Positions 5,207-25,753 are shown, counted from the stretch's first letter. The stretch: DNA of 32,000 nt from an uncultured Chloroflexia bacterium (GCA_963704755.1 OY969938.1:4140001-4172000); one strand, 5' to 3'. The notes: generated from the letters alone by a model not told the origin. Translations and numbers: made by a program.

Positions 5207-5209
5207 GGC

Positions 5210-6030: not shown

Positions 6031-6205
6031 TTTCTGTGTCTCCGCGCTTTTTTCAACGCTTATTTAAGGCTGGACCGTAACGGTGCGTTCCGGGCACGCC
6101 GATTTGGGCGTTTGCCCCAATGGTTTACCGGCGTCGGGGAAGTCCAGCCCTCAAACGCACCCTACGCCGGCGCCCGGCCTAAAAAGACTAATTCTCTTTT
6201 CCCTT

Positions 6206-6265
6206 GTTGCCTCATCGACTTATTGCCTATTTTCTAACCTCTATTCTCCATTTTCCTCTTATCCC
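6206..6265. repeat. Inverted, diverged copy of the sequence at 5164-5220 (tandem-repeat unit plus purine-rich flank)
   Basis: gttgcctcatcgacttattgcc (6206-) matches the reverse complement of 5199-5220 (gttgcctcatcgccttattcct) at about 19 of 22 positions by eye. A pyrimidine-rich tract follows that mirrors the purine-rich 5164-5198. Confidence 0.5.
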
Positions 6266-6290
6266 CCCCTTTCTCGGTTAAAATTCAAGC

Positions 6291-7502: not shown

Positions 7503-7505
7503 ATC

Positions 7506-8216
<711 letters not shown>

Positions 8217-8222
8217 GCCGGC

Positions 8223-9980: not shown

Positions 9981-10262
9981 ATTGGATTTTTTACGGGTGG
10001 GGTGATGATTCGCCGTTCAGATTGAGGCCGGCAGGGTGAAAAAATGGTCACCCCCTGGGTGAGCGGCAAAGTGATTTATGACGTATGGACAACGTGCATT
10101 TTGACCGTTTCGACGGGGTACGGTTCAGCCTACACTGTAGGTGATTACGGATAATCTATATTCCATTTGTGCAATTTTATAACTTATTCAATCTGGCGGG
10201 AACTTCTGGTATAAGCCTAAGTAGTTTCGGAATGATTTACCTTCTCAGGGAGGGAGGGCCGT

Positions 10263-11646
10263 ATGGATCAAAGTGTTGTCACTCTTTCTCAATGGCAATT
10301 TGCCATAACTTCGGTCTATCACTTTTTCTTCGTACCGCTTACGTTAGGTCTCTCGGTACTGGTAGCCATTATGGAGACCATCTACGTCAGCACCGGCAAC
10401 GAAGTCTACAAGCGGATGACCAAATTCTGGGGAAAGCTATTCATCATCAATTTTGCCATGGGGGTGGTGACGGGTATCGTTCAGGAATTCCAATTCGGGA
10501 TGAACTGGTCGGAATACTCCCGCTACGTGGGCGATATTTTCGGCGCACCGCTGGCTATCGAGGCTTTGCTGGCCTTCTTCCTTGAGTTCCACCTTCCTGG
10601 GATTATGGATCTTCGGTTGGGACCGCCTGGGGAAGCGGCTGCATTTGACAGCCATGTGGATGGTGGCCATTGGTTCGAATATCTCGGCCTTTTGGATCCT
10701 GGTGGCCAATTCGTTCATGCAATCCCCGGTCGGATATACCCAGGATGCCGGGCACCTGGTGATGACGAATTTCTCGGCCCTGCTGACCAACCCCTACGTG
10801 TGGGATGAATTTCCACACACCATTTTTTCTGGCCTTTCCACGGCCTCGTTCTTCATCCTGGGCATCAGCGCTTATCACCTGATCCGCAAGCACCATGAAA
10901 ACCTGTTCAAGCGCTCGTTCCAAATGGCCAGTGTAGCCGGTGTGTTGGCGGTGCTGCTGGTTATTCTGGTGGGGCATTCTCAAGCGCAGCGCATGGTGCA
11001 GGTTCAGCCAATGAAGATTGCCGCGGCCGAAGGATTGTTCGATACCGAGAACCCGGCCTCGTTCTCGCTGCTGACCATCGTCAACCAGAAGACGATGAGC
11101 GACATTATCTCGATCCGGATCCCGTACGCCTTGAGCTTGCTGGCTTATAACCGCCTGACCGGCGAGGTCAAAGGGATCAACGAGCTGCAAGCCGCGTACC
11201 AGGCTGAATATGGCCCGGGTAATTACGTGCCCAATATTACGGTGACGTACTGGTCCTTCCGCATCATGGTCGGCGCGGGCTTCTTGATGCTGCTGCTGGT
11301 GGCTTACGCCCTGTACCGGGTGATGCGCAACCAGTTGAAACCGAATATGAAATTCTTGAGTTTGTTCCCGCTCGCCATGGCGCTGCCTTACCTGGCGAAC
11401 ATATTCGGCTGGCTGTTGACCGAGATGGGCCGGCAACCCTGGGTGGTCTATGGCTTATTGCGTACCTCGGACGCGGTCTCGCCAAACCTGACGGCCGGGA
11501 TGGTGCTGACCAGCCTGATCGGGTTCACCCTGGTGTACGGCGCCTTGATGGCTGCCGATGTCTATCTGCTGGCCAAGAGCGCCCGCTCCGGGCCGGACCC
11601 TGAAACCGCTGCGGCGGAACTGATCGAAAAGAATGATTGGGAATAG
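10263..11646 (+). pseudogene. cydA: Cytochrome bd oxidase subunit I, reading frame broken by one extra nucleotide near 10587 (true pseudogene or sequence error)
   Basis: ORF 10263-10808 gives canonical CydA up to ...[14 protein letters not shown] and then becomes nonsense. The +1 frame from 10588 continues [50 protein letters not shown]... to the stop at 11646. Removing one T from gagTtcc restores ...FFLESTFLGLW..., the conserved CydA junction. The SD sequence GGGAGGGAGG lies before the ATG at 10263. Confidence 0.85.
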
Positions 11647-11655
11647 GAGGCTGTC

Positions 11656-12672
11656 ATGGATCTCAATACACTCTGGTTTATCCTGATCGCGGTTCTATTC
11701 ATCGGCTATTTCGTCCTGGAAGGTTTCGATCTGGGGGTTGGCATTCTGCTGCCCTTCCTGGGCAAAGACGATACCCAGCGGCGGATGATCATCAATACCA
11801 TCGGGCCGCACTGGGATGGCAATGAGGTCTGGCTGATCACGGCCGGCGGGGCTATGTTCGCGGCTTTCCCGGGCTGGTATGCTACCCTGTTCAGCGGGTT
11901 TTACCTGGCCCTGTTCCTGATGCTGATCGCGCTGATCTTTCGCGGGATTGCCCTGGAGTTCCGTTCCCGCGACGATAACCCGCTCTGGCGCAGCTTTTGG
12001 GATTGGGCCATTTGCATTGGCAGCCTCGTGCCGGCTTTGCTGTGGGGTGTGGCGTTTGCGAACTTCCTGCACGGTGTGCCGATCGATGCCAACCACATTT
12101 ATGTGGGCACCTTCTGGAATTTGATCAATGTATATGCCATTCTGGCCGGTTTGGTCACCCTGACCGGGTTCATTTTCAACGGGGCGATCTTCCTGACCCT
12201 CAAGGTGGGCGAGCCGGTGTTAAGTGCAGCCGAGAAAGCCGCCCGGGTTGTGTTCTATTTCACCGGTGCGGCCCTGATTGCCACCATTGTGGCGACTTAC
12301 TTCTTTACCGATATTATCGAAAAATTGGGTGTGAACCCCGGCCCGGTCCCGATCGGCGGGGTGCTGGCCCTGGCGGCCGTGGGCTGGCTGGTGTATCAGA
12401 AACGCTATGGCTGGGCTTACCTGCTCAACGTGCTGGGTGTGGTTTTGACCACCGCAACCGTCTTCATGATGCTGTATCCGCAGGTGCTGGTTTCCAGCCT
12501 GGACCCCACCTACAGCCTGACGATCTACAATGTCGCTTCCGGCCCGGTGACACTGCACACGATGTCGATCGTGGCCTTGATCTTCGTGCCGATCGTCCTG
12601 GTGTACCAGGGCTGGAGCTATTGGGTCTTCCGCAAACGCATCACGGGTAACCCGGAAGAGCTGCATTATTAG
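11656..12672 (+). CDS. cydB: Cytochrome bd oxidase subunit II
   Basis: 338 aa. MDLNTLWFILIAVLFIGYFVLEGFDLGVGILLPFLGKDDTQRRMIINTIGPHWDGNEVWLITAGGAMFAAFPGWYA is the canonical CydB N-terminus. AGGAGG lies upstream, and the gene starts 9 nt after the cydA stop. Confidence 0.9.
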   Translation: MDLNTLWFILIAVLFIGYFVLEGFDLGVGILLPFLGKDDTQRRMIINTIGPHWDGNEVWLITAGGAMFAAFPGWYATLFSGFYLALFLMLIALIFRGIALEFRSRDDNPLWRSFWDWAICIGSLVPALLWGVAFANFLHGVPIDANHIYVGTFWNLINVYAILAGLVTLTGFIFNGAIFLTLKVGEPVLSAAEKAARVVFYFTGAALIATIVATYFFTDIIEKLGVNPGPVPIGGVLALAAVGWLVYQKRYGWAYLLNVLGVVLTTATVFMMLYPQVLVSSLDPTYSLTIYNVASGPVTLHTMSIVALIFVPIVLVYQGWSYWVFRKRITGNPEELHY

Positions 12673-12691
12673 GATGAAAGAATCCCCCCAA

Positions 12692-12719
12692 CCCCCCTTG
12701 AAAAAGGGGGGTGTTTTTA
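12692..12719 (+). terminator. Rho-independent terminator after cydB
   Basis: 8-bp G/C stem cccccctt (12692-12699) / aagggggg (12704-12711) with a GAAA loop, followed by tgttttta. Confidence 0.75.
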
Positions 12720-12722
12720 TAA

Positions 12723-13090
12723 AGCTGTTAGCGGTTAGCTATTGGCAATTAGCCCGTAGGGTGGGTGGAGGGCTCGAAAATAACACAGACAAATCACCGG
12801 TTGGCGTCGTGATCCGGGCTTTGCCCGTAACCCACCGGGGGGTCGGTGCCGGCGACCGAGGTCGCGGCAACAAAAACGCGAAGCCCCACCTGCGTGGGGC
12901 TCAACCCGGCGTGGGCCACTTTTTGTGGCCCGGCTTTCGAAACCAAAGGATGTGTGTTGGGTTACGGGCTGAGCCTGGTAAAACAAAATGCCCTTCTGTG
13001 TGCCGGCGCCAGAATGGAGCCCGCAACCCAACCTACGAGCTAATTGCTAATCGCCAATAGCTAAAAGCTAAAAGCTAACTGCTAACAGCT
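12723..13090. mobile_element. ~370-bp non-coding MITE-like composite bounded by terminal inverted repeats and built from three short repeat modules (X, Y, Z)
   Basis: The left terminus agctgttagcggttagctattggcaattagc (12723-12753) is the imperfect reverse complement of gctaattgctaatcgccaatagcta...gctaactgctaacagct (13039-13090). Module X (about 12756-12836) recurs at about 15060-15138. Module Y (12851-12940) recurs at 14900-14985, with a fragment at 13105-13126. Module Z (12953-13036) belongs to the GTAGGTTGGGTT hairpin family seen at 5849-6030. No transposase is present. Confidence 0.6.
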
Positions 13091-13134
13091 CGCAGCCGGC
13101 TTTGGCCGCTTTTTGTGGCCCGGCTTATGAAAAC

Positions 13135-14100
13135 TTATGGGACAATAACGATCCGTTTTCCATGTTCCTTCAGGTCCCAAACTTTTTCAATGTCTTTCAG
13201 GGGATACTTTACAAGGTCTGCCCTTAATTGACCTTTTTTTATCATATCCCAGATAAGCTGGGCGCCTTCAGCCTGGGCCTGCGGTGGAGTCTGTGAAATC
13301 ATTCCGTAAATCTCAAGGCCTGAAGTCAACAGGCTTTGACCCGAGAGTTGTGCAGTCCATCCTGCCAATCCTCCGATCAGAACGAAACGGGTTCTTCTAC
13401 CTGGTACACCGATTGTAGTTGGAGTAAAGGTGTTGATGATCACTTCTGCCGGGTGGCCCCAGAGATAGTCGAGGATCACATCGTAGCCTTTTCCCGCCTC
13501 TTTTTTTATGGCTTTCGCTAATTCTTCATCCGGCTGGTTAAGGTTAATAAAAGCATCTGCGCCGAACTCCTTTAGCTTTTCTCCTGATTCCGGATTTCTT
13601 CCTGTTCCGATAATCCGTCCAGCGCCAAGATGCTTTGCAACCTGTACGGCAAGCATCCCTGAAACGCTTGTAGCGCCGTTAATCAATACCGTTTCACCCG
13701 ATTGGAGCTTTGCAACATATCTAAGCGGCCCGAGAGAACTCAATGCAGCGGATGGGATCACGGCTGCTTGCTCTGCGGTTATTCCTTCGGGAATTGGAGT
13801 GGCGGACGCCTTTGGTATCGCTACCCTTTCCGCCATAGAACCGTATGGGGGCTTTATCCCTCTAAAACTCACCAGGGTCCCATCTTCTAGAGAACCTATA
13901 CCACCGTAACCAACAACAGCCGGTAAAACTGGATAAAATTGTTTGCTGGCAAAGTGAATACCCGCTGAAAGCGCTTTGACAGCATAATCCAATATGACTG
14001 CCACTACCTTAACTGCAACATCACCGTCATTTAAAATGGGGTCAGGGAAATCTTCATACTTTGGGATATCTCCCAGGTTATTGATAACTGCTGCTTTCAT
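13135..14100 (-). CDS. Zinc-type/quinone oxidoreductase of the MDR superfamily (Qor-like)
   Basis: ORF 13135-14136. I prefer the ATG at 14100 (MKAAVINNLGD) because GAGGAGG lies 6 nt upstream. Nucleotide-binding motif: INGATSVSGMLAVQVAKHLGAGRIIGTGRN. GC content is visibly lower than in flanking host genes. Confidence 0.85.
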   Translation of the reverse strand: MKAAVINNLGDIPKYEDFPDPILNDGDVAVKVVAVILDYAVKALSAGIHFASKQFYPVLPAVVGYGGIGSLEDGTLVSFRGIKPPYGSMAERVAIPKASATPIPEGITAEQAAVIPSAALSSLGPLRYVAKLQSGETVLINGATSVSGMLAVQVAKHLGAGRIIGTGRNPESGEKLKEFGADAFINLNQPDEELAKAIKKEAGKGYDVILDYLWGHPAEVIINTFTPTTIGVPGRRTRFVLIGGLAGWTAQLSGQSLLTSGLEIYGMISQTPPQAQAEGAQLIWDMIKKGQLRADLVKYPLKDIEKVWDLKEHGKRIVIVP

Positions 14101-14172
14101 TTGAACCTCCTCGAGAAACTCGATAAATTCACTCAAATGTGTTAAAAATGAGACACCAACCTCCTGTATAAA

Positions 14173-14212
14173 CCGGAGATGTCTCCGGATTATTGTAATA
14201 GGAGAGTTCTCC
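14173..14212. promoter_or_regulatory. Two GGAGA-NN-TCTCC palindromes in the divergent qor/tetR intergenic region (candidate TetR operators)
   Basis: ccggagatgtctccgg (14173-14188) has 7-bp arms. ggagagttctcc (14201-14212) has 5-bp arms. Both share the same core and lie between the divergent starts at 14100 and 14261. Confidence 0.4.
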
Positions 14213-14260
14213 GTTTGTCAATGGTGATATAAATAATTTTTAGGGGCGGGAGTTGATATC

Positions 14261-14884
14261 GTGAAAGAATTGGAAGATGCCAATGCCAGGATTGAACGCC
14301 GCGATGCTGCAGAAAATCGTCAGCGAATATTGGATGCGGCGCAAAAACTTTTTGAGCAATACGGCGTTGAGCATACCAGTATGAATCAAATTGCGATCGA
14401 GGCACAAGTCGGTCCCGGGACCCTGTATCGCCGCTACAGGAATAAAAGCGAGTTATATTTTGATTTAAAAAAAGACAATATTGCTCAACTTTTCCATGAG
14501 ATCGAGAAATATTTGATAGACCACCAGGCCGATCCGCCTGATCGGCGATTGAAAGAAGTGCTCAGATTATTTATCTATTCTCGTGACAAAAATATCCAGT
14601 TATTGTCGGGATTTGAGGTCAGCACATTCGAAAAAAAACCGACTACCATCATGCAAACCCCGTTATACAATAAATTGTATGAAATTATCGTCAAATTATT
14701 CAGCGAGATGACTGCATGTGAACAGAACGAACCGAACAACGTGTTTAGGGCTGATATGTTGCTATATGCGTTATTAAAAGGTGACTCCTATCTATTTCAA
14801 AAGAATGTACGCGGTCATTCACCAGAATCGTTTTTGGAACAGCTTTGCCTGACATTTTTTCCGGTGTGCGTCGATACAGATTAG
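14261..14884 (+). CDS. TetR/AcrR-family transcriptional regulator
   Basis: GTG start. The N-terminal HTH reads RQRILDAAQKLFEQYGVEHTSMNQIAIEAQVGPGTLYRRYRNKSELYFDL. The gene is divergent from the oxidoreductase. Confidence 0.85.
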   Translation: MKELEDANARIERRDAAENRQRILDAAQKLFEQYGVEHTSMNQIAIEAQVGPGTLYRRYRNKSELYFDLKKDNIAQLFHEIEKYLIDHQADPPDRRLKEVLRLFIYSRDKNIQLLSGFEVSTFEKKPTTIMQTPLYNKLYEIIVKLFSEMTACEQNEPNNVFRADMLLYALLKGDSYLFQKNVRGHSPESFLEQLCLTFFPVCVDTD

Positions 14885-14899
14885 CAGTTAGCCGGCGTT

Positions 14900-14985
14900 G
14901 GCGACCGAGGTCGCAGCAACAAGTACTCGAAGCCCCACCTGCGTGGGTCTCAACCCGGCAGGGGGAGCTTTTTGTGGCCAAGCTT
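14900..14985. repeat. Module Y repeat, second copy, direct orientation relative to 12851-12940
   Basis: ggcgaccgaggtcgcAgcaacaa..cgaagccccacctgcgtgggTctcaacccggc...ctttttgtggcc aligns with 12851-12940. It contains two small hairpins (gcgacc/ggtcgc and ccccac/gtgggg). Confidence 0.75.
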
Positions 14986-15059
14986 CTTATAATTCACCAA
15001 ATTTCTCAATGAGCCCTCCACATATATTACATGTACAAAGCTAATTGCTAACATCTCGA

Positions 15060-15138
15060 AGCGTGGATGCAGGGCTCGAAAATAGCGCCGGCATATCACA
15101 AGTTGGAATTACCATCTGGATCTTGGCCGTAACCCACC
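15060..15138. repeat. Module X repeat, second copy (first copy about 12756-12836)
   Basis: Shared blocks gggctcgaaaata, atcac..gttgg and gccgtaacccacc occur in the same order. It is preceded by gctaattgctaac (15040-), which resembles the MITE terminus at 13039. Confidence 0.65.
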
Positions 15139-15276
15139 ATCTGGCGGGTAATCACCCGCATCCCGGTCTTCTTCGATCAGAAAGTAGTGGCGTTTCTAAT
15201 GGAGCGTTGAAAAGCAAGCTCAGTCGGGAGACCATCCCGAACGACAAGCGAGGAGACCACACAAATCAATTTTGAT

Positions 15277-16143
15277 TCATATCGATTTACATAGCTCAGA
15301 ATTAGTTTTTGCTAACCTATTTATCGCCATCAGATAGGTCTCATGTATTAGGTTTGGTTTATCTTTTTTTAAATTTCCGAGAGTAATATAATTATTTCCT
15401 GTAGTCATTTCAAGAGTTCCATCTGAGAGGATTTGCAGAAAATCAAAATATCGATCCTTCAATGACACCATTTTAAATTTTCTATTTGGAGCAGAAAAAA
15501 ATGATCTAATATTATAAGTAGATGAATAGAACAAAGAATCGCTTATTTCAAACAATTCTTTATTGTTTTTCGCCGCAACACCATGATCGCTACGAAATTG
15601 ATAGATTTTCCATTCTGATACCCCAGCATTAATAAGATAAGTTGCAATATTTTTCAAATCACCGTGATTGATTTTAGACACCACCGTAGTAGCTTTCAAA
15701 ATAATACCAGAATCCCGTAAGACCGAAAAAATATTATCCACTTTCTTAAAATGATCCTTTGGCCTTGACATTTGCATATTGATTTCTTCAGTTGAACCAT
15801 CCAAAGGGAGCGAAAGTCTATCTACCTTTGAACTTAATAAAAAAGCCAACCATTCTTTATCGATTAATGAACCATTGGTCATTACTGTTGTAAAAAGTTT
15901 GCTTTTAACTGAATATAAGATCGCTTCAGGAATCCAAGGAACAAGCAAAGGCTCCCCCGTAAATGTGATTCGATTAGCGCCTAATAAAATAAGTTTGTCG
16001 ATTATTTGTTTTGCTTCCTCAAAGGACGTAATATTGTCATCAGTTGAGTAACGATAACAATATTTGCATGCATAGTTGCATTTGCTTGTGACGTACCAAC
16101 AGACGTGGTTAGCGTGTATAGCAGAGGGTAATTGTTCAATCAT
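15277..16143 (-). CDS. Radical SAM enzyme, viperin-like (possible prokaryotic viperin, pVip)
   Basis: 288 aa with about 30-35% GC. CX3CX2C motif in VCWYVTSKCNYACKYCY. By eye it aligns along its length with human viperin as I remember it: FTRQCNYKCGFCFH / EEAK / INFSGGEPF vs ITFTGEPLL / SNGSLI vs TNGSLI / FKINSVIN vs LKATTVVSKIN / RWKVFQ vs EWKIYQ / MKDSYLILDEY vs LKDRYFDFLQI. There are no extra Cys clusters, so no SPASM domain. Confidence 0.8.
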   Translation of the reverse strand: MIEQLPSAIHANHVCWYVTSKCNYACKYCYRYSTDDNITSFEEAKQIIDKLILLGANRITFTGEPLLVPWIPEAILYSVKSKLFTTVMTNGSLIDKEWLAFLLSSKVDRLSLPLDGSTEEINMQMSRPKDHFKKVDNIFSVLRDSGIILKATTVVSKINHGDLKNIATYLINAGVSEWKIYQFRSDHGVAAKNNKELFEISDSLFYSSTYNIRSFFSAPNRKFKMVSLKDRYFDFLQILSDGTLEMTTGNNYITLGNLKKDKPNLIHETYLMAINRLAKTNSELCKSI

Positions 16144-16187
16144 CTTTCATTTCCAAATTTCAGACATTCGCCGATCTTAAAATAAAT

Positions 16188-17579
16188 TTATGGTAAAATA
16201 GGGAATAATATATGATTGGTTATAATTGTAAAAATAGCGCTTGTCAATGCAATAAATATACTAATAAAACTTAAAAGTAGGAGCAACAAATCTATTGTGC
16301 GTTGGTTGTTGCTAATTTTTCTTTGTGCTACCAAAGTAATTTTCTCATCGAGCAAACGCATCTTTTTATAGATGGTTTCTGCTCTATCAGGCAAATTCAT
16401 TTCCTTAGAGAGGTTATCTAAAAATTCCAATGAGAATCCATGAATAATGAAAGCAGTAATATCTCCTGTTTTCTCTAACTCTAGTATAAGGTTTTTCAAT
16501 TCAATAGCGACTGTAATGTCATCATTAAAGGTAGTCGAGGAATATTCTGATACAAAGCGTTCAATAATTGAGTTTAGTGTATGAGTGAATATTAATTGCG
16601 CATTTAATAGTTCGCAAATTATTTTTATGTTATTAACCAATATTGTCAACTCATTTATACGCCAGTAATCGGGTAGCACAATTAGGGCTGCATTGTTGTC
16701 ACAAATAAATAACTCATCGTCTTTATAAGACAACGAGTTACATATCACGCGATCAGAATAATTCTTGTTATACTCTCCAAACCATTTCGCCGAGTTTAAT
16801 ATACCTAATAATTCTTTTTTGGAGCCATCAGTTAGGTCACCACTTTCAAAACAATCCTCAACTTTGCTTCCTTCGAAATCGCTAGGGTTTACGACTAAAA
16901 AGCGGAAAGGCCTTCCATGTGGAATTATTGAATCGCGTGCATTAAGATCACAGGTAGTTAATTTGATACGTTTAAGAAAATAATTGGATTTATTTATGGT
17001 TACAAAGAACTCTGAAATATCAAAAATAAGCTTTCGAAAAAAGCTATCTAAGTATTGTTGAAGTTTTTGCATTATCAAAATGAATTCATTTGCTTCAAAA
17101 ACATTATGGCTATTTTCAGGATCGCGAAAGCTGAAACTAATTGACATAACACCATTACGAAATAAATTTAGACCTATGTTTTCATACTGAAATAGAGGCT
17201 TGCTTGTATCAGGGACGTCAAGACTGATGGTCGATGCATTAATCGTTAATCCTTTATCATAATCGAATCCATTTATTCCTTCTTTCAATTCATACAATGT
17301 AGGCATATATTGGTCGTAAAAAACAGGTGAAAAAATGTTCTTTCCACCGTTTTGAATAACCTTTTCTTTTGTTTTTTGAAGCAAATCTCCACCGGAATTA
17401 GACGTTTTTGGTATAAATGATCCGATCTTTATGCTGTTTCTCGAAAGGCTCCCCCATACATCAAAAAACATTCTGTTGTTAGATCTCATTGATCTAAATT
17501 TGTCCAATGAAGAATCTTTAACGAAGATACCGAAATCAAATGCATACATGAACGTAATGTTGAATTTTGAATATTTCAT
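16188..17579 (-). CDS. 463-aa orphan protein: large soluble N-terminal region, helical stalk, C-terminal hydrophobic anchor
   Basis: Long uninterrupted ORF in about 30% GC DNA, where random stops are frequent. GGGGTGG lies 4-5 nt before the ATG. It ends 44 bp upstream of the radical SAM gene on the same strand. The C-terminus IDLLLLLLSFISIFIALTSAIFTIITNHILFPILP is one long or two short TM segments. I recognise no catalytic motif. Confidence 0.75.
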   Translation of the reverse strand: MKYSKFNITFMYAFDFGIFVKDSSLDKFRSMRSNNRMFFDVWGSLSRNSIKIGSFIPKTSNSGGDLLQKTKEKVIQNGGKNIFSPVFYDQYMPTLYELKEGINGFDYDKGLTINASTISLDVPDTSKPLFQYENIGLNLFRNGVMSISFSFRDPENSHNVFEANEFILIMQKLQQYLDSFFRKLIFDISEFFVTINKSNYFLKRIKLTTCDLNARDSIIPHGRPFRFLVVNPSDFEGSKVEDCFESGDLTDGSKKELLGILNSAKWFGEYNKNYSDRVICNSLSYKDDELFICDNNAALIVLPDYWRINELTILVNNIKIICELLNAQLIFTHTLNSIIERFVSEYSSTTFNDDITVAIELKNLILELEKTGDITAFIIHGFSLEFLDNLSKEMNLPDRAETIYKKMRLLDEKITLVAQRKISNNQRTIDLLLLLLSFISIFIALTSAIFTIITNHILFPILP

Positions 17580-17610
17580 ATTCCACCCCTATTCAAAACT
17601 TGATAAAAAG

Positions 17611-17616
17611 ATTATA
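17611..17616 (-). promoter_or_regulatory. Candidate -10 box for the orphan/radical-SAM operon
   Basis: The complement reads ttgTATAAT, about 32 nt upstream of the ATG at 17579, within a 270-bp AT-rich leader. The -35 is weak (ttctaa). Confidence 0.3.
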
Positions 17617-17864
17617 CAATAAATTTTTGAGTTAGAATTCTTGGAAATTACTTTGAATAAGATTTGGTTGATCCAAATCCAATAGAAGCATATTGTATTA
17701 GATTTTAATGACCCTTCGAAGCTGTCTTTGTTATAGCAAAAATTGGTTTAATGATAAAAAGATTTATCAATGGAAAACATTTGATCTCCTGTCAAGCGGC
17801 TCGCTTTACCTTTTGAGGGCGAAGATTTAGAATAGTTTATCCTTTTTAATCAGTGGAGTTGACT

Positions 17865-18299
17865 ATGGGTAAGGGTTTCGAAAAACACATCATCGAAGCG
17901 GAGAACGCGCCGCAGGCTATTGGACCCTATTCGGTGGGGGTGATGGCCAGGCACTTCTTGTTTACGGCCGGCCAACTTGGCATCGATCCGGCCAGCGGGG
18001 CGATCGTCGAAGGTGGCATCGAGGCGGAAACCCGCCAGGCATTTACCAACCTGAAGGCCGTCCTGGAAGCAGCCGGCACTTCCCTGGCGAATGTGGTCAA
18101 GACGACCGTTTTCTTGCAGGATATCAATGAGTTTGGCAAGATGAACGAGGTCTACGCCGAGTTCATCGAAGGCGATTACCCGGCTCGTTCCGCTTTTCAA
18201 GTAGCGGCGCTGCCTAAGGGTGGCCGGGTCGAGATCGAAGCGGTCGCCCTGGTCCCTTCAACGGACCACCATCACCATCATCATCACGACCACGATTAG
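17865..18299 (+). CDS. ridA: RidA/YjgF/UK114-family reactive-intermediate deaminase with a C-terminal poly-His tail
   Basis: ORF 17853-18299. I prefer the ATG at 17865, with GGAG 8 nt upstream. PYSVGVMARHFLFTAGQLGIDPASG...TTVFLQDINEFGKMNEVYAEF...PARSAFQVAALPKGGRVEIEAVA is classic RidA. The tail is STDHHHHHHHDHD. Confidence 0.85.
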   Translation: MGKGFEKHIIEAENAPQAIGPYSVGVMARHFLFTAGQLGIDPASGAIVEGGIEAETRQAFTNLKAVLEAAGTSLANVVKTTVFLQDINEFGKMNEVYAEFIEGDYPARSAFQVAALPKGGRVEIEAVALVPSTDHHHHHHHDHD

Positions 18300-18317
18300 G
18301 CGCTCAGGCAGGCAGTT

Positions 18318-18998
18318 ATGGCCGCTGAATTGATCCTTCTGGTCGATGATGAGCCCAGCATTATCGAACTGGTGCGTCTGTACCTGGAACGCGAAGGATA
18401 CCGCACGCTCTCAACCGGGGATGGCCTGGCTGCGTTGGTCTCGATCGAAACGAATAAGCCCGCATTGGTTGTCCTGGACGTGATGCTGCCCGGGTTGGAC
18501 GGGCTGGAAGTCTGCCGGCGGATCCGGGCGAAGGACAACCAGGTGGGCATCATCATGCTGACCGCCCGTGATGATGACATCGACAAGATCATTGGGCTGG
18601 AGCTAGGCGCGGATGACTACCTGACCAAGCCGTTCAACCCGCGTGAGCTGGTCGCCAGGGTCAAGGCGGTTTTGCGACGGAACGGGGCAGCTTCACTTGC
18701 CCAGTCAGGCAGCTTGCAGTTTAGTGACCTGGCTATCGACCCCGAACGGCGGGAGGTTCGCGTGGCCGGGCGCTTGATCGAATTACGCACCCAGGAATTC
18801 GAGGTGCTGCTGGCCCTGGTGCAAAACCAGGGCAAAGTGCTGTCGCGCGAACAACTGCTCAACCTGGCCTGGGGGTACGATTTTTTCGGCCAGACCCGAA
18901 CGGTAGACGTCCACATTGCCCAAATCCGCCGCAAATTGAACGGAAGCCAGTTGAGAATCGAAACGGTGACCGGGATCGGGTATAAGCTGGTAAAGTAA
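18318..18998 (+). CDS. OmpR-family response regulator
   Basis: Receiver domain: ILLVDDE and ALVVLDVMLPGLDG. Winged helix: RTVDVHIAQIRRKL...IETVTGIGYKL. Confidence 0.9.
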   Translation: MAAELILLVDDEPSIIELVRLYLEREGYRTLSTGDGLAALVSIETNKPALVVLDVMLPGLDGLEVCRRIRAKDNQVGIIMLTARDDDIDKIIGLELGADDYLTKPFNPRELVARVKAVLRRNGAASLAQSGSLQFSDLAIDPERREVRVAGRLIELRTQEFEVLLALVQNQGKVLSREQLLNLAWGYDFFGQTRTVDVHIAQIRRKLNGSQLRIETVTGIGYKLVK

Positions 18999-20413
18999 TG
19001 TTCAAATCGCTGCGAAGCCGGTTGTGGTTGAGCTATGCTGCCATTATCCTGATCGTGCTGGTCTCCTTTACGGCAGCGATCACCATCACCCTGTTTTCCA
19101 GTCCCTATATTTATCGCAACACGGTCGCCCAGATGGAGATCAACCTGACGTCCCTGGCCGCCCAGGCCGGACAAAACCCGGATGCTTCGCCCGCGACGGA
19201 AGCAGTGCTGCAAACAGCCAGCCAGCAAAACGGCTTCCGCTACCTGATCATCTCGCCGGCCAAAAAAGTTCTGCTGGATACGAGCAGCGAGCCCAGCCTG
19301 GCTTTGCTGCGCATTCGGGTCAAGACGCTGCTTTCCAACGATGCCTACATCGCCGGCTTTTTGCGTGACAACCAGTTGCATATCTGGCTTTTCGCCGGCC
19401 GCAAGCTGGAGAATGGCAACTGGCTGATCGCCACCGAGATCAAGCCCAAACTGGTGCTGTTCAACGTGCTCAAGGACGAGGTATTCGGCCCACTAATTCT
19501 TACAGGCACCGGCAGCCTGTTCCTGGCGATTTTTGTGGCCTGGCTGATGGCGCAGCAAATCTCGGCGCCGCTGAGAAAACTGGCTCGCGGCACGCAGATG
19601 ATCGCCGCCGGGCGTTATCCCCAACTAGAAGAAAAAGGGCCGCTGGAGGTCCATCAACTGGCCCAGGCCTTCAACCGGATGAGCCGCCAGGTGCAGCAGA
19701 GCCAGCAGTCCCAGCGTGATTTTTTGGCCAACGTCTCGCACGAATTGAAAACCCCGCTGACCTCGATCCAGGGTTTCGCCCAGGCCATCCAGGATGGGGC
19801 AGTCAAGGACCCTGAGGCCTTGCAGCAGGCGGCCGGGGTGATTGCTGTTGAAGCGACCCGCATGCACCGCCTGGTCATGGACCTGCTGGCGCTGACCCGC
19901 CTGGAATCGGGCACGGCCGACCTGGTGGAGGAGCCGGTAGATTTAAATTTGCTGCTGCAATCGATTCTGGATAAATTTTCCCTCCAGGCCGAAAAAGCCG
20001 GGATTAAACTGGCAGGCGAGCTCAATGCTCTTCCGGAAACGGTCGGAGATGGTGACCGCTTGGTACAGGTATTTAGTAATTTGGTGGATAACGCGTTAAA
20101 ATATAGCCGTCCTGGTGGAACGGTTATATTGCGGGCGAGGTCAGCGAATGATGATATATTTGTCTCCGTCGTGGATGACGGGATAGGCATCAGCCCGGAA
20201 GAACAGAAAAGGATCTTCGAGCGGTTCTACCAGGTGGACCGGTCCCGTAAAGGCGGGACGGGCCGTGGTGTTGGGCTGGGTTTGGCCATCGCGCAGCAAA
20301 TTATCCTGGCCCACCATGGCGATATTCAGTTAGAAAGTGCTCCCGGTCAAGGCAGCACGTTTATCATCCATTTACCGGTCCAAAAATCCCCATCCCAGGT
20401 GAAAAAGGTTTGA
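18998..20413 (+). CDS. Sensor histidine kinase (2 TM, HAMP, HisKA, HATPase_c)
   Basis: The ATG overlaps the regulator stop (TAATG). H-box FLANVSHELKTPLTSIQGF, N-box FSNLVDNALKYS, G-boxes DDGIGI and GVGLGLAIA. Confidence 0.9.
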   Translation: MFKSLRSRLWLSYAAIILIVLVSFTAAITITLFSSPYIYRNTVAQMEINLTSLAAQAGQNPDASPATEAVLQTASQQNGFRYLIISPAKKVLLDTSSEPSLALLRIRVKTLLSNDAYIAGFLRDNQLHIWLFAGRKLENGNWLIATEIKPKLVLFNVLKDEVFGPLILTGTGSLFLAIFVAWLMAQQISAPLRKLARGTQMIAAGRYPQLEEKGPLEVHQLAQAFNRMSRQVQQSQQSQRDFLANVSHELKTPLTSIQGFAQAIQDGAVKDPEALQQAAGVIAVEATRMHRLVMDLLALTRLESGTADLVEEPVDLNLLLQSILDKFSLQAEKAGIKLAGELNALPETVGDGDRLVQVFSNLVDNALKYSRPGGTVILRARSANDDIFVSVVDDGIGISPEEQKRIFERFYQVDRSRKGGTGRGVGLGLAIAQQIILAHHGDIQLESAPGQGSTFIIHLPVQKSPSQVKKV

Positions 20414-21423
20414 AAATAGAAACGCCGCTCCAATCTGCAACCGTCAGTGTTATTGTGCCTTGCCTGAACGAAGCCAAAACAATCGGCCTGCTCTTGGAGG
20501 CAGTTTACCAGCAGACTTACCCGCGCTCTCTGCTCGAGGTGGTGATTGTCGATGGCCGGTCCACCGATGACACCCGTGGGGCTATCGGGCGTTTTTGCAG
20601 CGAGCACCAGGATTTGGCCATCAAAGTGGTCGATACCCCCCGCCGGGTCATTCCGGCGGCCCTGAACCTGGCTATCGCCGAGTCGCAGGGCGAAATCATC
20701 GTCCGCCTGGACGGTCATTCGATCCCGAATGCGGATTATGTCGAGCGTTCCGTGGCAGGGCTGCAGGCCGGGAAGGGCGATAACGTGGGCGGGGTCTGGA
20801 AGATCCGCCCGGGCAGCCCCTCCTGGATTGGGCGCTCGATCGCCGCGGCGGCCAGCCACCGCCTGGGGGTAGGGGACGCACAGTACCGCTACGCCACCCA
20901 GCCTGGCCTGGTGGATACGGTGCCGTTTGGGGCTTTTTATCGCCAGGTGGTGGAGCGGTTGGGTGGATTTGACGAAAGCTTGCTGACGAACGAAGATTAC
21001 GAGTTCAACACCCGCCTGCGCCAGTCGGGAGGAAAGGTTTACCTGGATCCGCTTATCCAGTCCAGGTACTTTTCGCGGCCGGGTTTGAGTGCGCTGGCGC
21101 GCCAATACTGGCGCTACGGATTCTGGAAATGGCGCATGCTGCGCCGGTACCCAAGTACACTGCGCTGGCGGCAGGCGCTGCCGCCGGTTTTCGTGGCCGG
21201 CACGATTGGGCTGGCCCTTCTGGCGGTGTTCTGGGTATGGGCGCGCTGGCTGCTGCTGGCCGATTTGGTTGCGTATAGCCTTGTTCTGTTTGCCGGCTCA
21301 TTTTTTACTGCGGTGAGAGCGAAAGACCCCGGCCTGGTCATTGGCCTGCCGTTGGCGATCGCCACGATGCATTTTTCTTGGGGGGCCGGCTTTTTAGCCA
21401 GCATCTTTCGTACTCGGGGATAA
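20410..21423 (+). CDS. Glycosyltransferase family 2 (ExoA-like) with C-terminal TM segments
   Basis: The TTG start overlaps the kinase stop (TTGA). VSVIVPCLNEAKTIGLLLEAVYQQTYP...EVVIVDGRSTDDT is a GT2 signature; an NEDYEF motif is also present. Confidence 0.8.
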   Translation: MKIETPLQSATVSVIVPCLNEAKTIGLLLEAVYQQTYPRSLLEVVIVDGRSTDDTRGAIGRFCSEHQDLAIKVVDTPRRVIPAALNLAIAESQGEIIVRLDGHSIPNADYVERSVAGLQAGKGDNVGGVWKIRPGSPSWIGRSIAAAASHRLGVGDAQYRYATQPGLVDTVPFGAFYRQVVERLGGFDESLLTNEDYEFNTRLRQSGGKVYLDPLIQSRYFSRPGLSALARQYWRYGFWKWRMLRRYPSTLRWRQALPPVFVAGTIGLALLAVFWVWARWLLLADLVAYSLVLFAGSFFTAVRAKDPGLVIGLPLAIATMHFSWGAGFLASIFRTRG

Positions 21424-21443
21424 TCTGGGATAATAAAACCAAT

Positions 21444-22868
21444 ATGGATTCGACAACCTCAACGCCTAAACACACCGTCCGGCTGCGCACGGCCGAACGG
21501 CGTTCCACTCTGTTAGCAGGGGATTTCATAATTGCGGTACTTTCGTTATTACTGGCCCTGTATATCTGGTCCAAAGGACCAGAATGGCTAAACTTTTCCT
21601 GGGCTTTCCTCAAGGAGCGCGTGCCGTTTTGGTTTTATCTGCTGCCGTTCCTGTGGATGCTGCTGCTAAGTGAAACCTATAACCCGCGCCACCTGACCTC
21701 GCGGGACCAGACCTACCGTTCGATCAGTATGGCCGCCGGGGTCAGTGTTGTTATTTATCTGTTTTTCTTCTTCCTGGCTGAACCGAACTCTTTGCCGCGG
21801 CGGGGAGTGGCTGCCTTTATTGTGGCGGTGTTCCTGCTGACCTTGTTATGGCGTTTGATCTATATCAAGACATTCACCGCCCCATTATTTATGCGCCGTG
21901 TTTTGATCGTGGGCGCCGGACGCTCCGGTACGGTCCTGGCAAATGTCGTCCACGGCTTATGGCCGCCACCTTTTCACCTGGTCGGCCTGATCGATGATGA
22001 TCCGGAGAAGATCGGCACAGAAGTTGCCGAATCGCCAGTATTGGGCAACAATGATCAACTATTCGAGTTGATCCAGGAGCATGATGTGACCGATTTGGTC
22101 TTCGCCATCACCGGTGCGATGAGCCACAAGCTATCTCAAAACCTGTTGATTGCCGAAGAGCAGGGCATCGAAGTCACTTCGATGGCGGCGTTATATGAGG
22201 AACTCCTCGGACGGATACCGATTTCGCTGTTACAGCCGGATTGGGTGTTGCGCTCCTTCGTCGATCAGGCTCACATGGGCGGCTTTTTTGAATTAAGCAA
22301 ACGCCTGATGGATATCGTGGGCGGGCTGGTCGGCTGCCTGGTTCTGGCGGTCACGATCGTGATTTTTGGCCCGTTGATCGTCCTGGACTCGGGTAAGCCT
22401 ATTTTTTATGAGCAGATCCGCCTGGGGCGTAACGGGAAGCCGTATAATATGCTCAAGTTCCGTACGATGAAACAGGATGCCGAGAAAGATGGCGTGGCGC
22501 GCCCGGCTTCGGTCAACGATGAACGGGCAACCCGCGTGGGCCGCTTTTTACGCAAAACGCACCTGGACGAGCTGCCCCAGGTAATCAATGTCCTCAAGGG
22601 CGAAATGAGCCTGGTAGGACCACGTTCCGAGCGCCCGGAGCTGGTAGAAGAATTACAGATACACATCCCGTTTTATCGGGCCCGTTTGTTCGTCAAACCC
22701 GGCCTGACCGGTTGGGCTCAAATTAATTATGGCTATGCCTCCAACGTCGCCATGAATTCAATCAAGCTTGAATACGACCTATACTATATCAAGCGCCGCA
22801 ACCTGTTTCTCGATCTCGCCGTAATTTTTAGAACGGTTTGGACTGTCGTCGGGCTGCGGGGAAGATAA
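21444..22868 (+). CDS. Polyprenyl-phosphate glycosyl-1-phosphate transferase (WbaP/EpsB-type initiating sugar transferase)
   Basis: ORF 21378-22868. I prefer the ATG at 21444, which avoids overlapping the upstream gene. N-terminal TM helices and a central Rossmann-like VLIVGAGRSG are present. The C-terminal bacterial sugar transferase domain reads KPIFYEQIRLGRNGKPYNMLKFRTM...RVGRFLRKTHLDELPQVINVLKGEMSLVGPRSERPE. Confidence 0.85.
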   Translation: MDSTTSTPKHTVRLRTAERRSTLLAGDFIIAVLSLLLALYIWSKGPEWLNFSWAFLKERVPFWFYLLPFLWMLLLSETYNPRHLTSRDQTYRSISMAAGVSVVIYLFFFFLAEPNSLPRRGVAAFIVAVFLLTLLWRLIYIKTFTAPLFMRRVLIVGAGRSGTVLANVVHGLWPPPFHLVGLIDDDPEKIGTEVAESPVLGNNDQLFELIQEHDVTDLVFAITGAMSHKLSQNLLIAEEQGIEVTSMAALYEELLGRIPISLLQPDWVLRSFVDQAHMGGFFELSKRLMDIVGGLVGCLVLAVTIVIFGPLIVLDSGKPIFYEQIRLGRNGKPYNMLKFRTMKQDAEKDGVARPASVNDERATRVGRFLRKTHLDELPQVINVLKGEMSLVGPRSERPELVEELQIHIPFYRARLFVKPGLTGWAQINYGYASNVAMNSIKLEYDLYYIKRRNLFLDLAVIFRTVWTVVGLRGR

Positions 22869-22871
22869 GGA

Positions 22872-24764
22872 ATGAAAGCGAAGCCAAACATACCTAATCG
22901 GTACATTTTCGCCGGTGACATTGTACTGATCGTAGTTTCGATTTTAGGCGCATTTGTCTTGCGCTTCGAACTCGGCTCGCTGTTCTTTAGCTATTTACCG
23001 GTAGCATACACCATGATCGCCGCCTCGCTGGTGATCAAACCGGTTGTGTATTACCTGTTTGGCCTGTACCGGCGCATGTGGCTGTACGCCAGTGTGGAAG
23101 AGCTGCGCCTGATCGTAGTGGCGGTGACGACCGCTTCTATCCTGGTCAGCCTGGTGATGATGTTTATTTTCGTGCGTGGCTGGACCGGGGCTTACATTCG
23201 TTCGGTGCTGGTCATCGACTGGCTGCTGTCCCTCTTCCTGGTGGGCGGCATCCGCCTGACGATGCGTTTGCTGGCCGAATTCGGTAATCAGGGCAACGAC
23301 TTCAACGCCGGGCGGAGAATCAAGCGGGTGCTGATCGTAGGCGCCGGGGACGCCGGTGCGCTGGTGGTCCGCGAGCTGCAAAAGAACCAGCAATTGAACT
23401 TGCAGCCGATCGGCTTCCTGGACGATAACCCGATTAAACAAAAACAACAGATCCACGGCATCCCGGTAGTCGGCACGCTGAACGACCTGACCCGCGTACT
23501 GGAGCGTCAGCCGGTCGATGAAGTCATTATTGCCATTCCCAGCGCGCCGGGGCGGGTGGTCCGCCTGGTGGCAGACGTAGCCCGGCTGAAGAACGTCTCC
23601 TTCCGGACCATGCCGGGGATCTATGAGCTCCTGGGCGGCCAGGTAAGTGTCAACCGCCTGCGCGAAGTGGACATTTCGGACTTATTACGCCGCCAGCCGG
23701 CCCGCATGCAGGATGAATTGATCGGCGCGGCTTTGTCCGAGAAAGTCGTGCTGGTCACCGGGGCAGGCGGGTCGATTGGCCGGGAATTGTGCCGCCAGAT
23801 CGCCCGCTGGAACCCGAGCAGGCTGGTTATGCTGGGGCATGGCGAAAACAGTATTTTCGAGGCCCTGGTGGAACTGAAAGATGCTTTTCCCAACCTGGAG
23901 ATCAAGCCGGTCATTTGCGATATCCGTGACCGGGCTCGAATGGATGTCATTTTTTGCGAGCACAACCCGCAGGTAGTTTTCCACGCCGCCGCCCATAAGC
24001 ACGTACCTTTGATGGAGGTCAACATCGAGGAGGCGGTCACCAATAACGTGATGGGTACCCGCAACCTGGTGGAAGTCTGCCTGGACCATGATGTCGATCG
24101 TCTGGTCATGATTTCCACCGACAAGGCCATCCGCCCGGCCAATATCATGGGCGCCACCAAGCGCCTGGCCGAAATGCTGGTCATCGATGCGGCCGTCCGC
24201 ACCGGGCGGCAGTATTCGGTGGTGCGCTTCGGCAACGTGTTGGGTAGTCGGGGCAGCGTGGTGCCGTTATTCAAGCAGCAGATCGCCCGCGGCGGCCCGA
24301 TCACCATTACCCATCCGGACATGAAGCGCTATTTCATGACCATCCCGGAAGCGGTTTACCTGGTGTTGCACGCCGCCCGTATGGGCGGTGGAGCCGAGAC
24401 CTATGTGCTCAACATGGGCCAACAGGTACGCATCCTCGACCTGGCCGAGGACTTGATCCGCCTTTCCGGCCTGGAACCGGGCAAGGATATCGAGATCGTC
24501 TTTACAGGCATACGACCGGGCGAAAAGTTGAGCGAAGACCTGTGGGACGAAGGCTTCCAGTTCAAGGCCACCGACCACCCGGATATCTTCCGCCTGGAAA
24601 ACACGGAGCCCTTCGACCACAACCGCCTGATCAGCCTGGTGGACGAACTGGTCAAGCTGGCGCAGGAAGGCGGCTTCCAGGAGATCATCGACCTGATGGA
24701 TGCCAGTATCCCCGGCGCAATTGTTGGCGCTACTCCTTCCCCCGAAATCACTTCGATCATCTAA
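22872..24764 (+). CDS. Membrane-bound nucleotide-sugar 4,6-dehydratase/epimerase (CapD/WbpM/PglF family)
   Basis: Four N-terminal TM helices and two Rossmann motifs (VLIVGAGDAGALV, VLVTGAGGSIGREL). STDKA and MGATKRLAE match the family's catalytic pattern. Confidence 0.85.
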   Translation: MKAKPNIPNRYIFAGDIVLIVVSILGAFVLRFELGSLFFSYLPVAYTMIAASLVIKPVVYYLFGLYRRMWLYASVEELRLIVVAVTTASILVSLVMMFIFVRGWTGAYIRSVLVIDWLLSLFLVGGIRLTMRLLAEFGNQGNDFNAGRRIKRVLIVGAGDAGALVVRELQKNQQLNLQPIGFLDDNPIKQKQQIHGIPVVGTLNDLTRVLERQPVDEVIIAIPSAPGRVVRLVADVARLKNVSFRTMPGIYELLGGQVSVNRLREVDISDLLRRQPARMQDELIGAALSEKVVLVTGAGGSIGRELCRQIARWNPSRLVMLGHGENSIFEALVELKDAFPNLEIKPVICDIRDRARMDVIFCEHNPQVVFHAAAHKHVPLMEVNIEEAVTNNVMGTRNLVEVCLDHDVDRLVMISTDKAIRPANIMGATKRLAEMLVIDAAVRTGRQYSVVRFGNVLGSRGSVVPLFKQQIARGGPITITHPDMKRYFMTIPEAVYLVLHAARMGGGAETYVLNMGQQVRILDLAEDLIRLSGLEPGKDIEIVFTGIRPGEKLSEDLWDEGFQFKATDHPDIFRLENTEPFDHNRLISLVDELVKLAQEGGFQEIIDLMDASIPGAIVGATPSPEITSII

Positions 24765-25753
24765 TGACTATCCTCGATGCACAACAATGGACGGCTTTTC
24801 TGACGAGCCGCCCACAAACTCACATTTTACAAACCTCGGCCTGGGGCGAATTCAAGGCCGGCTTCGGCTGGAAGCCGGTGCGCGTACAGGCCGGGGAGAG
24901 TGGTGCGCAGATCCTGCTGCGCAGGCTGCCGTTGGGGTTGAGTTTTGCCTATATTCCCAAGGGGCCCCTGGGAGACGATTGGCAGGCCCTGTGGCCCGAG
25001 ATTGACCGGGTGTGCCGGCAGAACCGGGCGATATTTTTGAAGATCGAGCCGGATGCCTGGGAAGGCGCTGCAGGCCACCTGGCACCTGCCCTGGCGGGTT
25101 TTATCCCGGCCAGGCCGGTACAGCCTTACCGCACTGTTTTGATCGATTTGAGCGGCTCGGAGGAGGATTGGTTGGCGCGGATGAAACAGAAGACCCGGTA
25201 CAACATCCGCCTGGCCCAACGCAAAGAAGTGGTTGTGCAGCCTTCCAGCGATATCGCTGCTTTTCAGCGGATGATGCAGGTCACCGGGGCGCGGGACGGC
25301 TTTGGTGTTCACAGTCTGGAGTATTACCAAAAGGCATACCGGGCCTTCACCGAAACAGACAACGTGGCTTTGCTGATGGCCGAATACCAGGGCCAACTCC
25401 TGGCCGGGTTAATGGTTTTCGCGGCTGGCCAGACGGCCTGGTATTTTTACGGCGCGTCCACCAACGAAGAGCGCAACCGCATGCCGACCTATTTGCTGCA
25501 ATTTGAAGCCATGCGCTGGGCAGCCGCACGCGGCTGCCTGACTTATGACTTATGGGGCATCCCGGACCTGGACGAACAGGAACTGGAAGCCCATTTTAGC
25601 GAGCACGGAGATGGCCTATGGGGCGTGTACCGTTTCAAACGCGGCTTTGGCGGCGAGATCTTCCGCACGGCCGGCGCTTGGGATAAAGTCTATTTCCCGG
25701 CCCTCTACCGCCTGTATCTTATGTATTTACGCCGAAGGGGGAGTGAGGAATAA
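24764..25753 (+). CDS. FemAB-family aminoacyl/peptidyl transferase (FemX-like), copy 1
   Basis: The ATG overlaps the CapD stop (TAATG). MTILDAQQWTAFLTSRPQTHILQTSAWGEFKAGFGW...WLARMKQKTRYNIRLAQRKEV...NRMPTYLLQFEAMRWAAARGCLTYDLWGI is typical of the FemAB family. The 24542 start in the ORF track is an out-of-gene extension. Confidence 0.8.
   Translation: MTILDAQQWTAFLTSRPQTHILQTSAWGEFKAGFGWKPVRVQAGESGAQILLRRLPLGLSFAYIPKGPLGDDWQALWPEIDRVCRQNRAIFLKIEPDAWEGAAGHLAPALAGFIPARPVQPYRTVLIDLSGSEEDWLARMKQKTRYNIRLAQRKEVVVQPSSDIAAFQRMMQVTGARDGFGVHSLEYYQKAYRAFTETDNVALLMAEYQGQLLAGLMVFAAGQTAWYFYGASTNEERNRMPTYLLQFEAMRWAAARGCLTYDLWGIPDLDEQELEAHFSEHGDGLWGVYRFKRGFGGEIFRTAGAWDKVYFPALYRLYLMYLRRRGSEE

Follow-up and report, generated by a model that had tools for sequence, protein, structure and literature searches.

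Viperins are textbook immune enzymes common to bacteria and humans and are thought to act alone or with a kinase; together with MoaA, the GTP 3',8-cyclase, they form a pair of sister families that both act on nucleoside triphosphates. In a survey of viperins, kinases are the only partners reported (bioRxiv 10.1101/2023.09.13.557418). A precedent for a signal-gated membrane protein comes from CRISPR (clustered regularly interspaced short palindromic repeats) systems, in which SAM-AMP gates the associated CorA and a degrading phosphodiesterase is its obligate companion (PMC10600005). Here we analysed 32,000 nt of DNA from an uncultured Chloroflexia bacterium (GCA_963704755.1 OY969938.1:4140001-4172000; hereafter the window), in which an AT-rich island carries two genes, one encoding a 288-aa radical S-adenosylmethionine (SAM) enzyme and the other a 463-aa membrane-anchored protein, hereafter the partner. 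Since the pairing of such a membrane protein with a radical SAM enzyme recurs in 12 of 12 unrelated loci, several of them beside mobile-element or defence genes, an undescribed anti-virus module is probable. On balance, we read the segment as a horizontally acquired operon of a conserved defence module, of the anti-phage abortive-infection type, whose two proteins would be functionally coupled. The pair had been taken to be undescribed in a preliminary description of this DNA, and we found no account of it in the searchable full text of the literature, many subscription papers lying outside this scope.

The island (15277-17852, 2.6 kb) has a G+C content of 32.3%, compared with 58.7% for positions 1-13000 and 57.9% for positions 17853-32000. 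The counts by hand that had first drawn attention to it, 15 G+C out of 60 at 16201-16260 versus 47 out of 60 at 1141-1200, are both exact. The drop in G+C begins before the island, with 46% from ~13000 over an ADH_zinc_N gene and a TetR gene. The two genes were correctly described as co-oriented on the minus strand and 44 bp apart: the partner gene (16188-17579) and the radical SAM gene (15277-16143) were both read as intact open reading frames (ORFs), and no terminator-like site was predicted within the spacer that separates them (16144-16187), an arrangement in which the two would be co-transcribed. The island is foreign, a horizontally acquired two-gene insert.

We then compared the loci in which a member of the partner family could be read with its flank, i.e. 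twelve distinct loci (the window, L001, L002, L005, L006, L009, L052, L053, L054, L060, L061 and L062). In all twelve, a co-oriented radical SAM gene adjoins the partner-family gene. The window pair is syntenic in L001 and L002, with 28-33% identity for the partner and ~41% for the enzyme, and in these three loci the partner gene precedes a viperin-like enzyme of ~290 aa. In the nine others (L006 also standing for L007 and L008), the order is enzyme then partner and the enzyme is MoaA-like, with a length of 353-422 aa. Thus, the fixed pairing of a viperin-like enzyme with a membrane protein put forward in the preliminary description stands as far as the radical SAM gene is concerned, which is always adjacent, but not for the enzyme type, most modules (9/12) being MoaA-like. 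Of the eleven loci measured, nine have an intergenic gap of -5 to +44 bp, three of them with a 4-5 bp overlap, and the distances between partners and between enzymes co-vary (r = 0.79 for the nine MoaA-type pairs, Mantel p ~2e-4). The two-gene unit is kept across very distant hosts, with G+C contents of 39-59%. With adjacency in every locus and co-divergence of both genes, chance adjacency was rejected.

The MoaA-like enzymes linked to the partner depart from true MoaA. With the MoaA equivalogs, those of L005 and L006 reach 170-192 bits, under the cut-offs, and auxiliary-cluster cysteines are missing in five of the nine (L009, L053, L054, L061 and L062), while a C-terminal CxxC...C is present in L005, L006 and L060; the R-x-S-x-x-G motif is retained throughout. 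Unlike MoaA, they are not accompanied by MoaC or MoaB, and their surroundings are of the mobile or defence kind. On a hidden Markov model (HMM) of their own clade, they score 223-563 bits, whereas the enzymes of the window, L001 and L002 (hereafter the window clade) reach 17-25 bits on this HMM versus 119-137 bits on a prokaryotic-viperin HMM. We conclude from these contrasting scores that the two enzyme types are different lineages, both from the related NTP-acting families, recruited by one partner family, and a derivation of the window enzyme from the MoaA-like partner-linked enzymes was rejected. On the MoaA equivalog itself, the window enzyme scores 50.5 bits against a cut-off of 284 bits, and it is without the C-terminal cysteine triad (CxxCx13C).

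How does the window enzyme compare with viperins? Near its N-terminus it carries the cluster motif C22-x3-C26-x2-C29 (C22-N-Y-A-C26-K-Y-C29), invariant in our alignment A6, and it matches Pfam Radical_SAM at E = 1.6e-21, with neither an auxiliary-cluster nor a SPASM domain. A ~290-aa radical SAM partial barrel with an N-terminal CxxxCxxC and no auxiliary cluster is also the anatomy of viperins (pVip; NF038283, TIGR04278; 6Q2P, 5VSL, 6B4C, 9DFU). The top NCBIfam family is viperin_w_prok with 93.6 bits, the next family having 69 and MoaA ~50, and PADLOC pVip matches with E = 6.8e-30. Among solved structures, viperins are the best matches in both sequence and fold: they occupy the top nine places of a phmmer search of the PDB (2.9e-15 to 6.2e-11, aligned up to residue 237) and the top nineteen of a Foldseek search (3.7e-9 to 1.1e-7, MoaA ranking 37th), the latter with a model of moderate confidence (predicted local distance difference test, pLDDT, of only 66) built from a two-sequence alignment. 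The best plasmid matches, at 28-30% identity, are genes annotated by PGAP as 'viperin family antiviral radical SAM protein'.

For the phylogeny, we used as references eleven presumed prokaryotic viperins from genome loci, which are viperin-like by motif inspection and not by curated-model score. In a neighbour-joining tree rooted on MoaA, the window clade groups with these references in 100/100 bootstraps, and the references are monophyletic without the window clade in 91/100. This placement is only indicative, as the tree was built by a distance method and its root is a single true MoaA (L029). By sequence, predicted fold and phylogeny, the nearest relatives of the enzyme are viperins, and it is assigned to a viperin sister lineage.

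The enzyme is nevertheless not a canonical viperin. Its scores lie under the curated cut-offs (93.6 vs 180 bits for NF038283; 49.4 vs 450 bits for TIGR04278), and the L002 orthologue reaches 107 bits on the curated viperin model. Several positions that are invariant in viperins have changed in the whole window clade (mouse residue numbers, mapped via the 5VSL construct offset). The N-Phi-H motif directly ahead of the cluster (N77, H79), which reads N-[WYL]-H in 11/11 references, is C-W-Y in the window, L001 and L002; G-G-E-P, present in all references, has become F-T-G-E-P with a one-residue deletion in 3/3 members; K-[IV]-N-T reads K-x-[TS]-T (N222 to T or S) and R-W-K reads E-W-K (R245 to E). 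The barrel-closing C-terminal tail of viperins (R-G-G-x-Y-x-W or Y-x-S-R-Y) has no equivalent in the window clade alignment, and the window enzyme ends in a predicted helix (263-287). We take N77, H79, R245 and the tail to have functional roles in viperins. Retained are the WK motif and two lysines, K150 and K179, equivalent to viperin K220 and K247, which we assume to bind the triphosphate. In the 6Q2P structure, K220, N222 and K247 line the CTP-centred pocket (PMC11970327), and the SAM-binding GGE motif, together with CxxxCxxC, has been used as a criterion for viperins, with a role assigned to the beta-8 loop (bioRxiv 10.1101/2023.09.13.557418). Overall, the viperin-like character attributed to the enzyme in the preliminary description is borne out in that viperins, and not housekeeping families, are closest, but its identity as a canonical viperin is rejected on the cut-offs, the loss of invariant motifs and a branch outside the presumed prokaryotic viperins.

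Since the pVip match is as good as 6.8e-30, automatic pipelines may label the gene a prokaryotic viperin, and this match would also fit an ordinary stand-alone prokaryotic viperin that lies by chance beside an unrelated membrane-protein gene. We regard this explanation as very improbable in view of the score under the curated viperin cut-off, the branching outside the eleven presumed prokaryotic viperins, the adjacency in 12/12 loci with two enzyme lineages and both gene orders, and the co-divergence of the two genes. In this respect also the window lineage differs from viperins: it is always paired with the ~460-aa membrane protein, which is absent from 41/41 loci of a genome scan performed with the enzyme alignment (radical SAM enzymes, several of them viperin-like, at <=34% identity).

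The window enzyme clade is rare. The two motif patterns of the enzyme, run against 185,579 species genomes, retrieved nothing above 34% identity, and a word-indexed search of a 5.8-billion-protein index with the window proteins retrieved the proteins themselves, one relative (P0003, 41%) and one SPASM protein.

The partner had been called an orphan, and its sequence has no match in Pfam (E up to 1), NCBIfam or the PDB; a word-indexed search retrieved only itself. HMMER over 1.84 billion cluster representatives, however, identified 66 relatives at E <= 1e-3, of which 21 at <= 1e-10, mostly of 440-570 aa and matching end to end with 15-28% identity. The partner is therefore a member of a real unannotated family, and the orphan status is rejected. 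All the motifs of the family are found in the window protein (GGKxIW[ST], LRxFRxGxLS, a conserved His, GxLNxAxWYxxY, GYRxDEIYxTD, YW and HGFTR), as are the family residues K80, H221, G259, W266, Y270, E289, W306, H380, F382 and E393. The family was absent from a plasmid collection (queried with the window partner and P0007) and from a phage collection (queried with P0007 only), and BFVD gave no match to the partner; three partner-family loci came from a metagenome scan and one from viral scans.

The layout of the partner comprises ~430 cytosolic residues followed by one C-terminal transmembrane helix (~431-449) with almost no external segment. A C-terminal hydrophobic helix is present in 57/57 long members and is nearly always single, a second one being possible in P0008 and P0013. 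The AlphaFold2 model, computed with 25 family sequences (pLDDT 81.7; predicted TM-score, pTM, 0.82), combines an alpha/beta head with several long helices, and its 63-residue terminal helix (396-458) has the membrane segment at its end. For this protein, described at first as of unknown fold, Foldseek against the PDB gave CorA magnesium channels for all of the top seven matches, each of them weak (E = 0.018-0.057, probability 0.63-0.92, TM-scores 0.19-0.34). The PADLOC HMMs of CRISPR-type CorA-like proteins, the sole recurrent PADLOC family, match 4/57 members with a best E of 4e-4. We consider the CorA-like character suggested by the model a weak lead, and not membership of the CorA family.

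With this reservation, the module can be set beside the type III CRISPR CorA effector that responds to SAM-AMP and occurs with NrN, DEDD or SAM-AMP lyase (Chi et al, 2023; PMC10600005). Both combine a large soluble N-terminal domain with a C-terminal membrane segment and a resemblance to CorA, and in both an enzyme handles SAM and a nucleotide, the latter being presumed for the module. Both also have a frequent third gene of phosphoesterase type (EEP or NUDIX in the module) that could remove the signal. The module differs by having neither Cas10 nor CRISPR, by a generator that is a radical SAM enzyme, and by a partner that has a single transmembrane helix and lacks both a GMN motif and a Pfam CorA match, the likeness consisting of weak HMM and Foldseek signals only. 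A nucleotide-transforming enzyme beside a membrane-targeting protein, with genes that often overlap and lie on islands, is also common to CBASS (cyclic-oligonucleotide-based anti-phage signalling system), Pycsar and Thoeris, to which the radical SAM enzyme class and the effector family of the module are unrelated; no sensor domain was identified in the module. The theme of a nucleotide-transforming enzyme with a membrane protein in defence islands is known, and the novel elements are the new viperin sister lineage and the new partner family.

We next examined the surroundings of the related loci, which are mobile, variable regions, several of them with recognised defence genes. L061 carries an HTH_3/peptidase M78 protein, an NYN gene and a type II restriction-modification pair (N6_Mtase/Eco57I and XhoI). 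In L062, a Gasdermin_protease/EAD1/Trypsin_2 protein is accompanied by a second trypsin-like protease; the identity of a 255-aa gene beside the gasdermin-protease-domain gene as a gasdermin was not confirmed by sequence. L060 has an HTH_3/peptidase M78 gene upstream and an EEP (Exo_endo_phos) gene downstream, and L053 an EEP gene upstream together with a phage-type integrase. PIN genes are found in L006 and L007, IS66 in L005, a UvrD-like ATPase with weak GajB and NERD-UvrD matches in L009, and a TrwB-like conjugative coupling protein in L054, which is on an IMG/VR contig. The expected proximity to defence genes is thus seen in relatives, while the window copy lies among housekeeping genes. 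The computational checks suggested in the preliminary description all turned out in its favour, although a defence role is still inferred. The HTH_3/peptidase M78 protein (~350-360 aa) is a fusion in both loci (2290-3378 in L060, 1-463 in L061). It may be a regulator, and might resemble the CapH/CapP-type control of other defence operons.

Accessory genes for nucleotide processing recur in these surroundings. EEP genes are present at three loci (L053, 327-1091; L060, 7238-8029; and the P0014 locus), and the L053 and L060 proteins share the motifs GPDG..W..H.KG and N[VA]H.FP.H.F; EEP may be a facultative third component of the module. In L052, a NUDIX hydrolase gene (2818-3327) on the same strand starts 10 bp past the stop codon of the partner, and further downstream a 258-aa gene has a weak PADLOC match to 'SAVED_TM effector' (E = 5e-4). 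Convergent with the L002 pair, the stretch 2801-5501 holds a 277-aa gene without annotation, a thymidylate kinase and a nucleoside 2-deoxyribosyltransferase-methyltransferase fusion, which may form a nucleotide-modification cassette; a nucleotide kinase close to one relative of the window pair is a further likeness to viperins.

These contexts are those of mobile elements in general, beyond defence genes, and the window copy has no defence neighbour, two observations that would suit a module without an immune function. Such a module could, for example, make a modified nucleoside or cofactor, the membrane protein serving for export or self-resistance, or it could serve as an addiction (maintenance) module of mobile elements; BlsE, AbmM and MoaA, from nucleoside-antibiotic and cofactor pathways, are indeed among the structural matches of the enzyme. 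We judge this unlikely. The pair is without further biosynthetic genes (no MoaC/MoaB, tailoring enzymes or transporter), a single-pass protein is atypical as an exporter, the two-gene unit persists across distant hosts of widely differing G+C, and defence islands typically hold neighbours of the restriction-modification, gasdermin-protease-domain and HTH-M78 kinds.

For the anti-phage module that we favour, the following course of events may be proposed. The enzyme, with its [4Fe-4S] cluster and SAM, would perform radical chemistry on a nucleotide, for which it retains a viperin-like barrel and the lysines aligned with pocket residues K220 and K247. Because the residues that define the conversion of CTP to 3'-deoxy-3',4'-didehydro-CTP (ddhCTP) are altered, its substrate or its product is probably unlike that of canonical viperins. 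The product would act on, or together with, the large cytosolic domain of the partner, whose predicted architecture of alpha/beta head, long stalk helix and C-terminal transmembrane helix would be CorA-like; the partner would then compromise the membrane and infection would be halted. In the relatives, the nucleotide product could be cleared by EEP phosphoesterases or NUDIX enzymes, and expression could be under the control of HTH-peptidase M78 repressors. In its most specific form, put forward only tentatively, the radical SAM enzyme, viperin-like or MoaA-like, would make a second messenger from a nucleotide, possibly with SAM, that gates a CorA-like tail-anchored effector and is switched off by EEP or NUDIX.

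Several observations weigh against the proposed module and this mechanism. Slowness and oxygen sensitivity make radical SAM enzymes awkward signal generators, and an infection sensor is not evident in the module. Regarding the partner, there is no Pfam CorA match, no Foldseek match below E = 1e-3 and no GMN motif, one transmembrane helix is found instead of the two of CorA, and PDB sequences searched with the family profile yielded nothing above noise (catenin, E = 0.04) and no CorA. The window copy, for its part, lies among housekeeping genes, with neither an EEP or NUDIX gene nor a known defence neighbour. PADLOC applied to ten neighbours in L002-L053 returned nothing significant (best E = 2e-4 to 5e-4). 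Finally, the sample amounts to twelve loci of a rare family (66 representatives among 1.84 billion clusters).

The roles could also be reversed, the enzyme being the effector that makes chain-terminating or toxic nucleotide analogues and the partner a sensor, activator or anchor, which would either detect phage entry or envelope stress and activate the enzyme or position it at the membrane. With its one transmembrane helix and hardly any external segment, the partner looks more like an anchor than like a channel, the overlapping or tightly spaced genes fit a stoichiometric complex, and viperins are the nearest characterised relatives of the enzyme; in addition, the thymidylate kinase near the L002 pair recalls the known viperin-kinase linkage (bioRxiv 10.1101/2023.09.13.557418). 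We give this assignment, the main alternative, low but real credence. In none of the three clade members are the viperin-invariant positions (N77, H79, GGE, N222, R245 and the C-terminal tail) preserved, so that synthesis of 3'-deoxy-3',4'-didehydro nucleotides by the window enzyme is doubtful. Moreover, most modules carry MoaA-like enzymes, the known chemistry of which involves no chain terminators, and characterised prokaryotic viperins need no partner; the 41 genome-scan loci lack one.

With these results, viperins gain a sister lineage that is invariably linked to a large membrane protein, from a family that has no annotation. Elsewhere, members of this family accompany MoaA-like enzymes. 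A bridge from housekeeping MoaA to antiviral viperin is also possible. As a defence system, which is the reading that we favour, the module would bring a new enzyme-effector combination, and membrane effectors of the CorA type would no longer be confined to CRISPR. What the enzyme makes may be a new molecule derived from a nucleotide, serving as a signal or as an antiviral analogue that could be of pharmacological interest. Should the second-messenger mechanism hold, it would be the first immune pathway with a messenger made by a radical SAM enzyme, a CRISPR-independent counterpart of the SAM-AMP/CorA pathway and an evolutionary link among MoaA, viperin and immune signalling.

Upstream of the partner gene, the AT-rich leader noticed earlier measures 273 bp (17580-17852, minus strand) and is an intergenic region shared divergently with a RidA-family gene that starts at 17853 on the plus strand; the G+C fraction of 17501-18000 is 0.38. 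The leader contains a -10-like hexamer TATAAT (17616-17611, minus strand), within TGTATAAT, in the extended -10 form and 32 nt upstream of the partner ATG. A Shine-Dalgarno-like run GGGGTGG (17589-17583, minus strand), read directly from the sequence, lies 3 nt before this ATG at 17579. A generic promoter scan returned 12 sites versus 12.1 expected from shuffles, i.e. no enrichment, and since the scan is not above shuffles the TATAAT site is a plausible putative promoter only. The RidA (Ribonuc_L-PSP) protein across the leader (17853-18299), whose start codon is 273 bp from the divergent partner gene, has a His-rich C-terminal tail, HHHHHHHDHD.

On the left side, the island abuts a repeat mosaic, as had been stated: the stop codon of the 288-aa gene (15277-15279) directly adjoins non-coding DNA in which two segments, within 14893-15138, recur in permuted order at 12737-12936. 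The mosaic is real, as 14893-14985 matches 12844-12936 (84%, 93 nt) and 15039-15138 matches 12737-12836 (71%, 100 nt); blastn gives 87.5% over 80 nt for this left-border repeat. It may be a dispersed intergenic element, or the recombination scar of a composite insertion beside the AT-rich pair. Mosaic copies (12723-13133 and 14893-15138) flank the ADH-TetR segment of 46% G+C on both sides, and hairpin-like units CCGGC...TTTTTGTGGCC are present in the mosaic at 12906, 13096 and 14955. Around the island, we found no flanking direct repeats or attachment-like sites, and neither tRNA nor Rfam searches gave a match anywhere in the window. The ten flanking ORFs (10582-22868) contain no integrase or transposase by Pfam, in agreement with the preliminary description over the range of that scan, the rest of the window being outside it. 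They are housekeeping in character: CydAB, a zinc-type dehydrogenase, TetR, RidA, an OmpR-type regulator with a histidine kinase, and glycosyltransferases.

Elsewhere in the window, a tandem array (5162-5449) of a 16-nt unit, GATGAGGCAACGAGTG, in ~13 or more copies shows a strong G and A skew, the GC skew reaching 0.38 over 5001-5500. Just past this array, two arms separated by 243 nt (5473-5504 and 5748-5779) form a perfect 32-nt inverted repeat. Inside the ORF 30823-31881, positions 31062-31833 carry degenerate 18-nt (6-codon) repeats in which ACG and CCG abound and which probably encode a Pro/Thr-rich linker or a repeat protein. Two pairs of paralogous coding segments with 76-78% identity were also observed (25140-25521 and 26737-27124; 7651-7862 and 18466-18680), of which one resembles a tandem gene duplication ~1.6 kb apart and the other corresponds to two OmpR-type response regulators.

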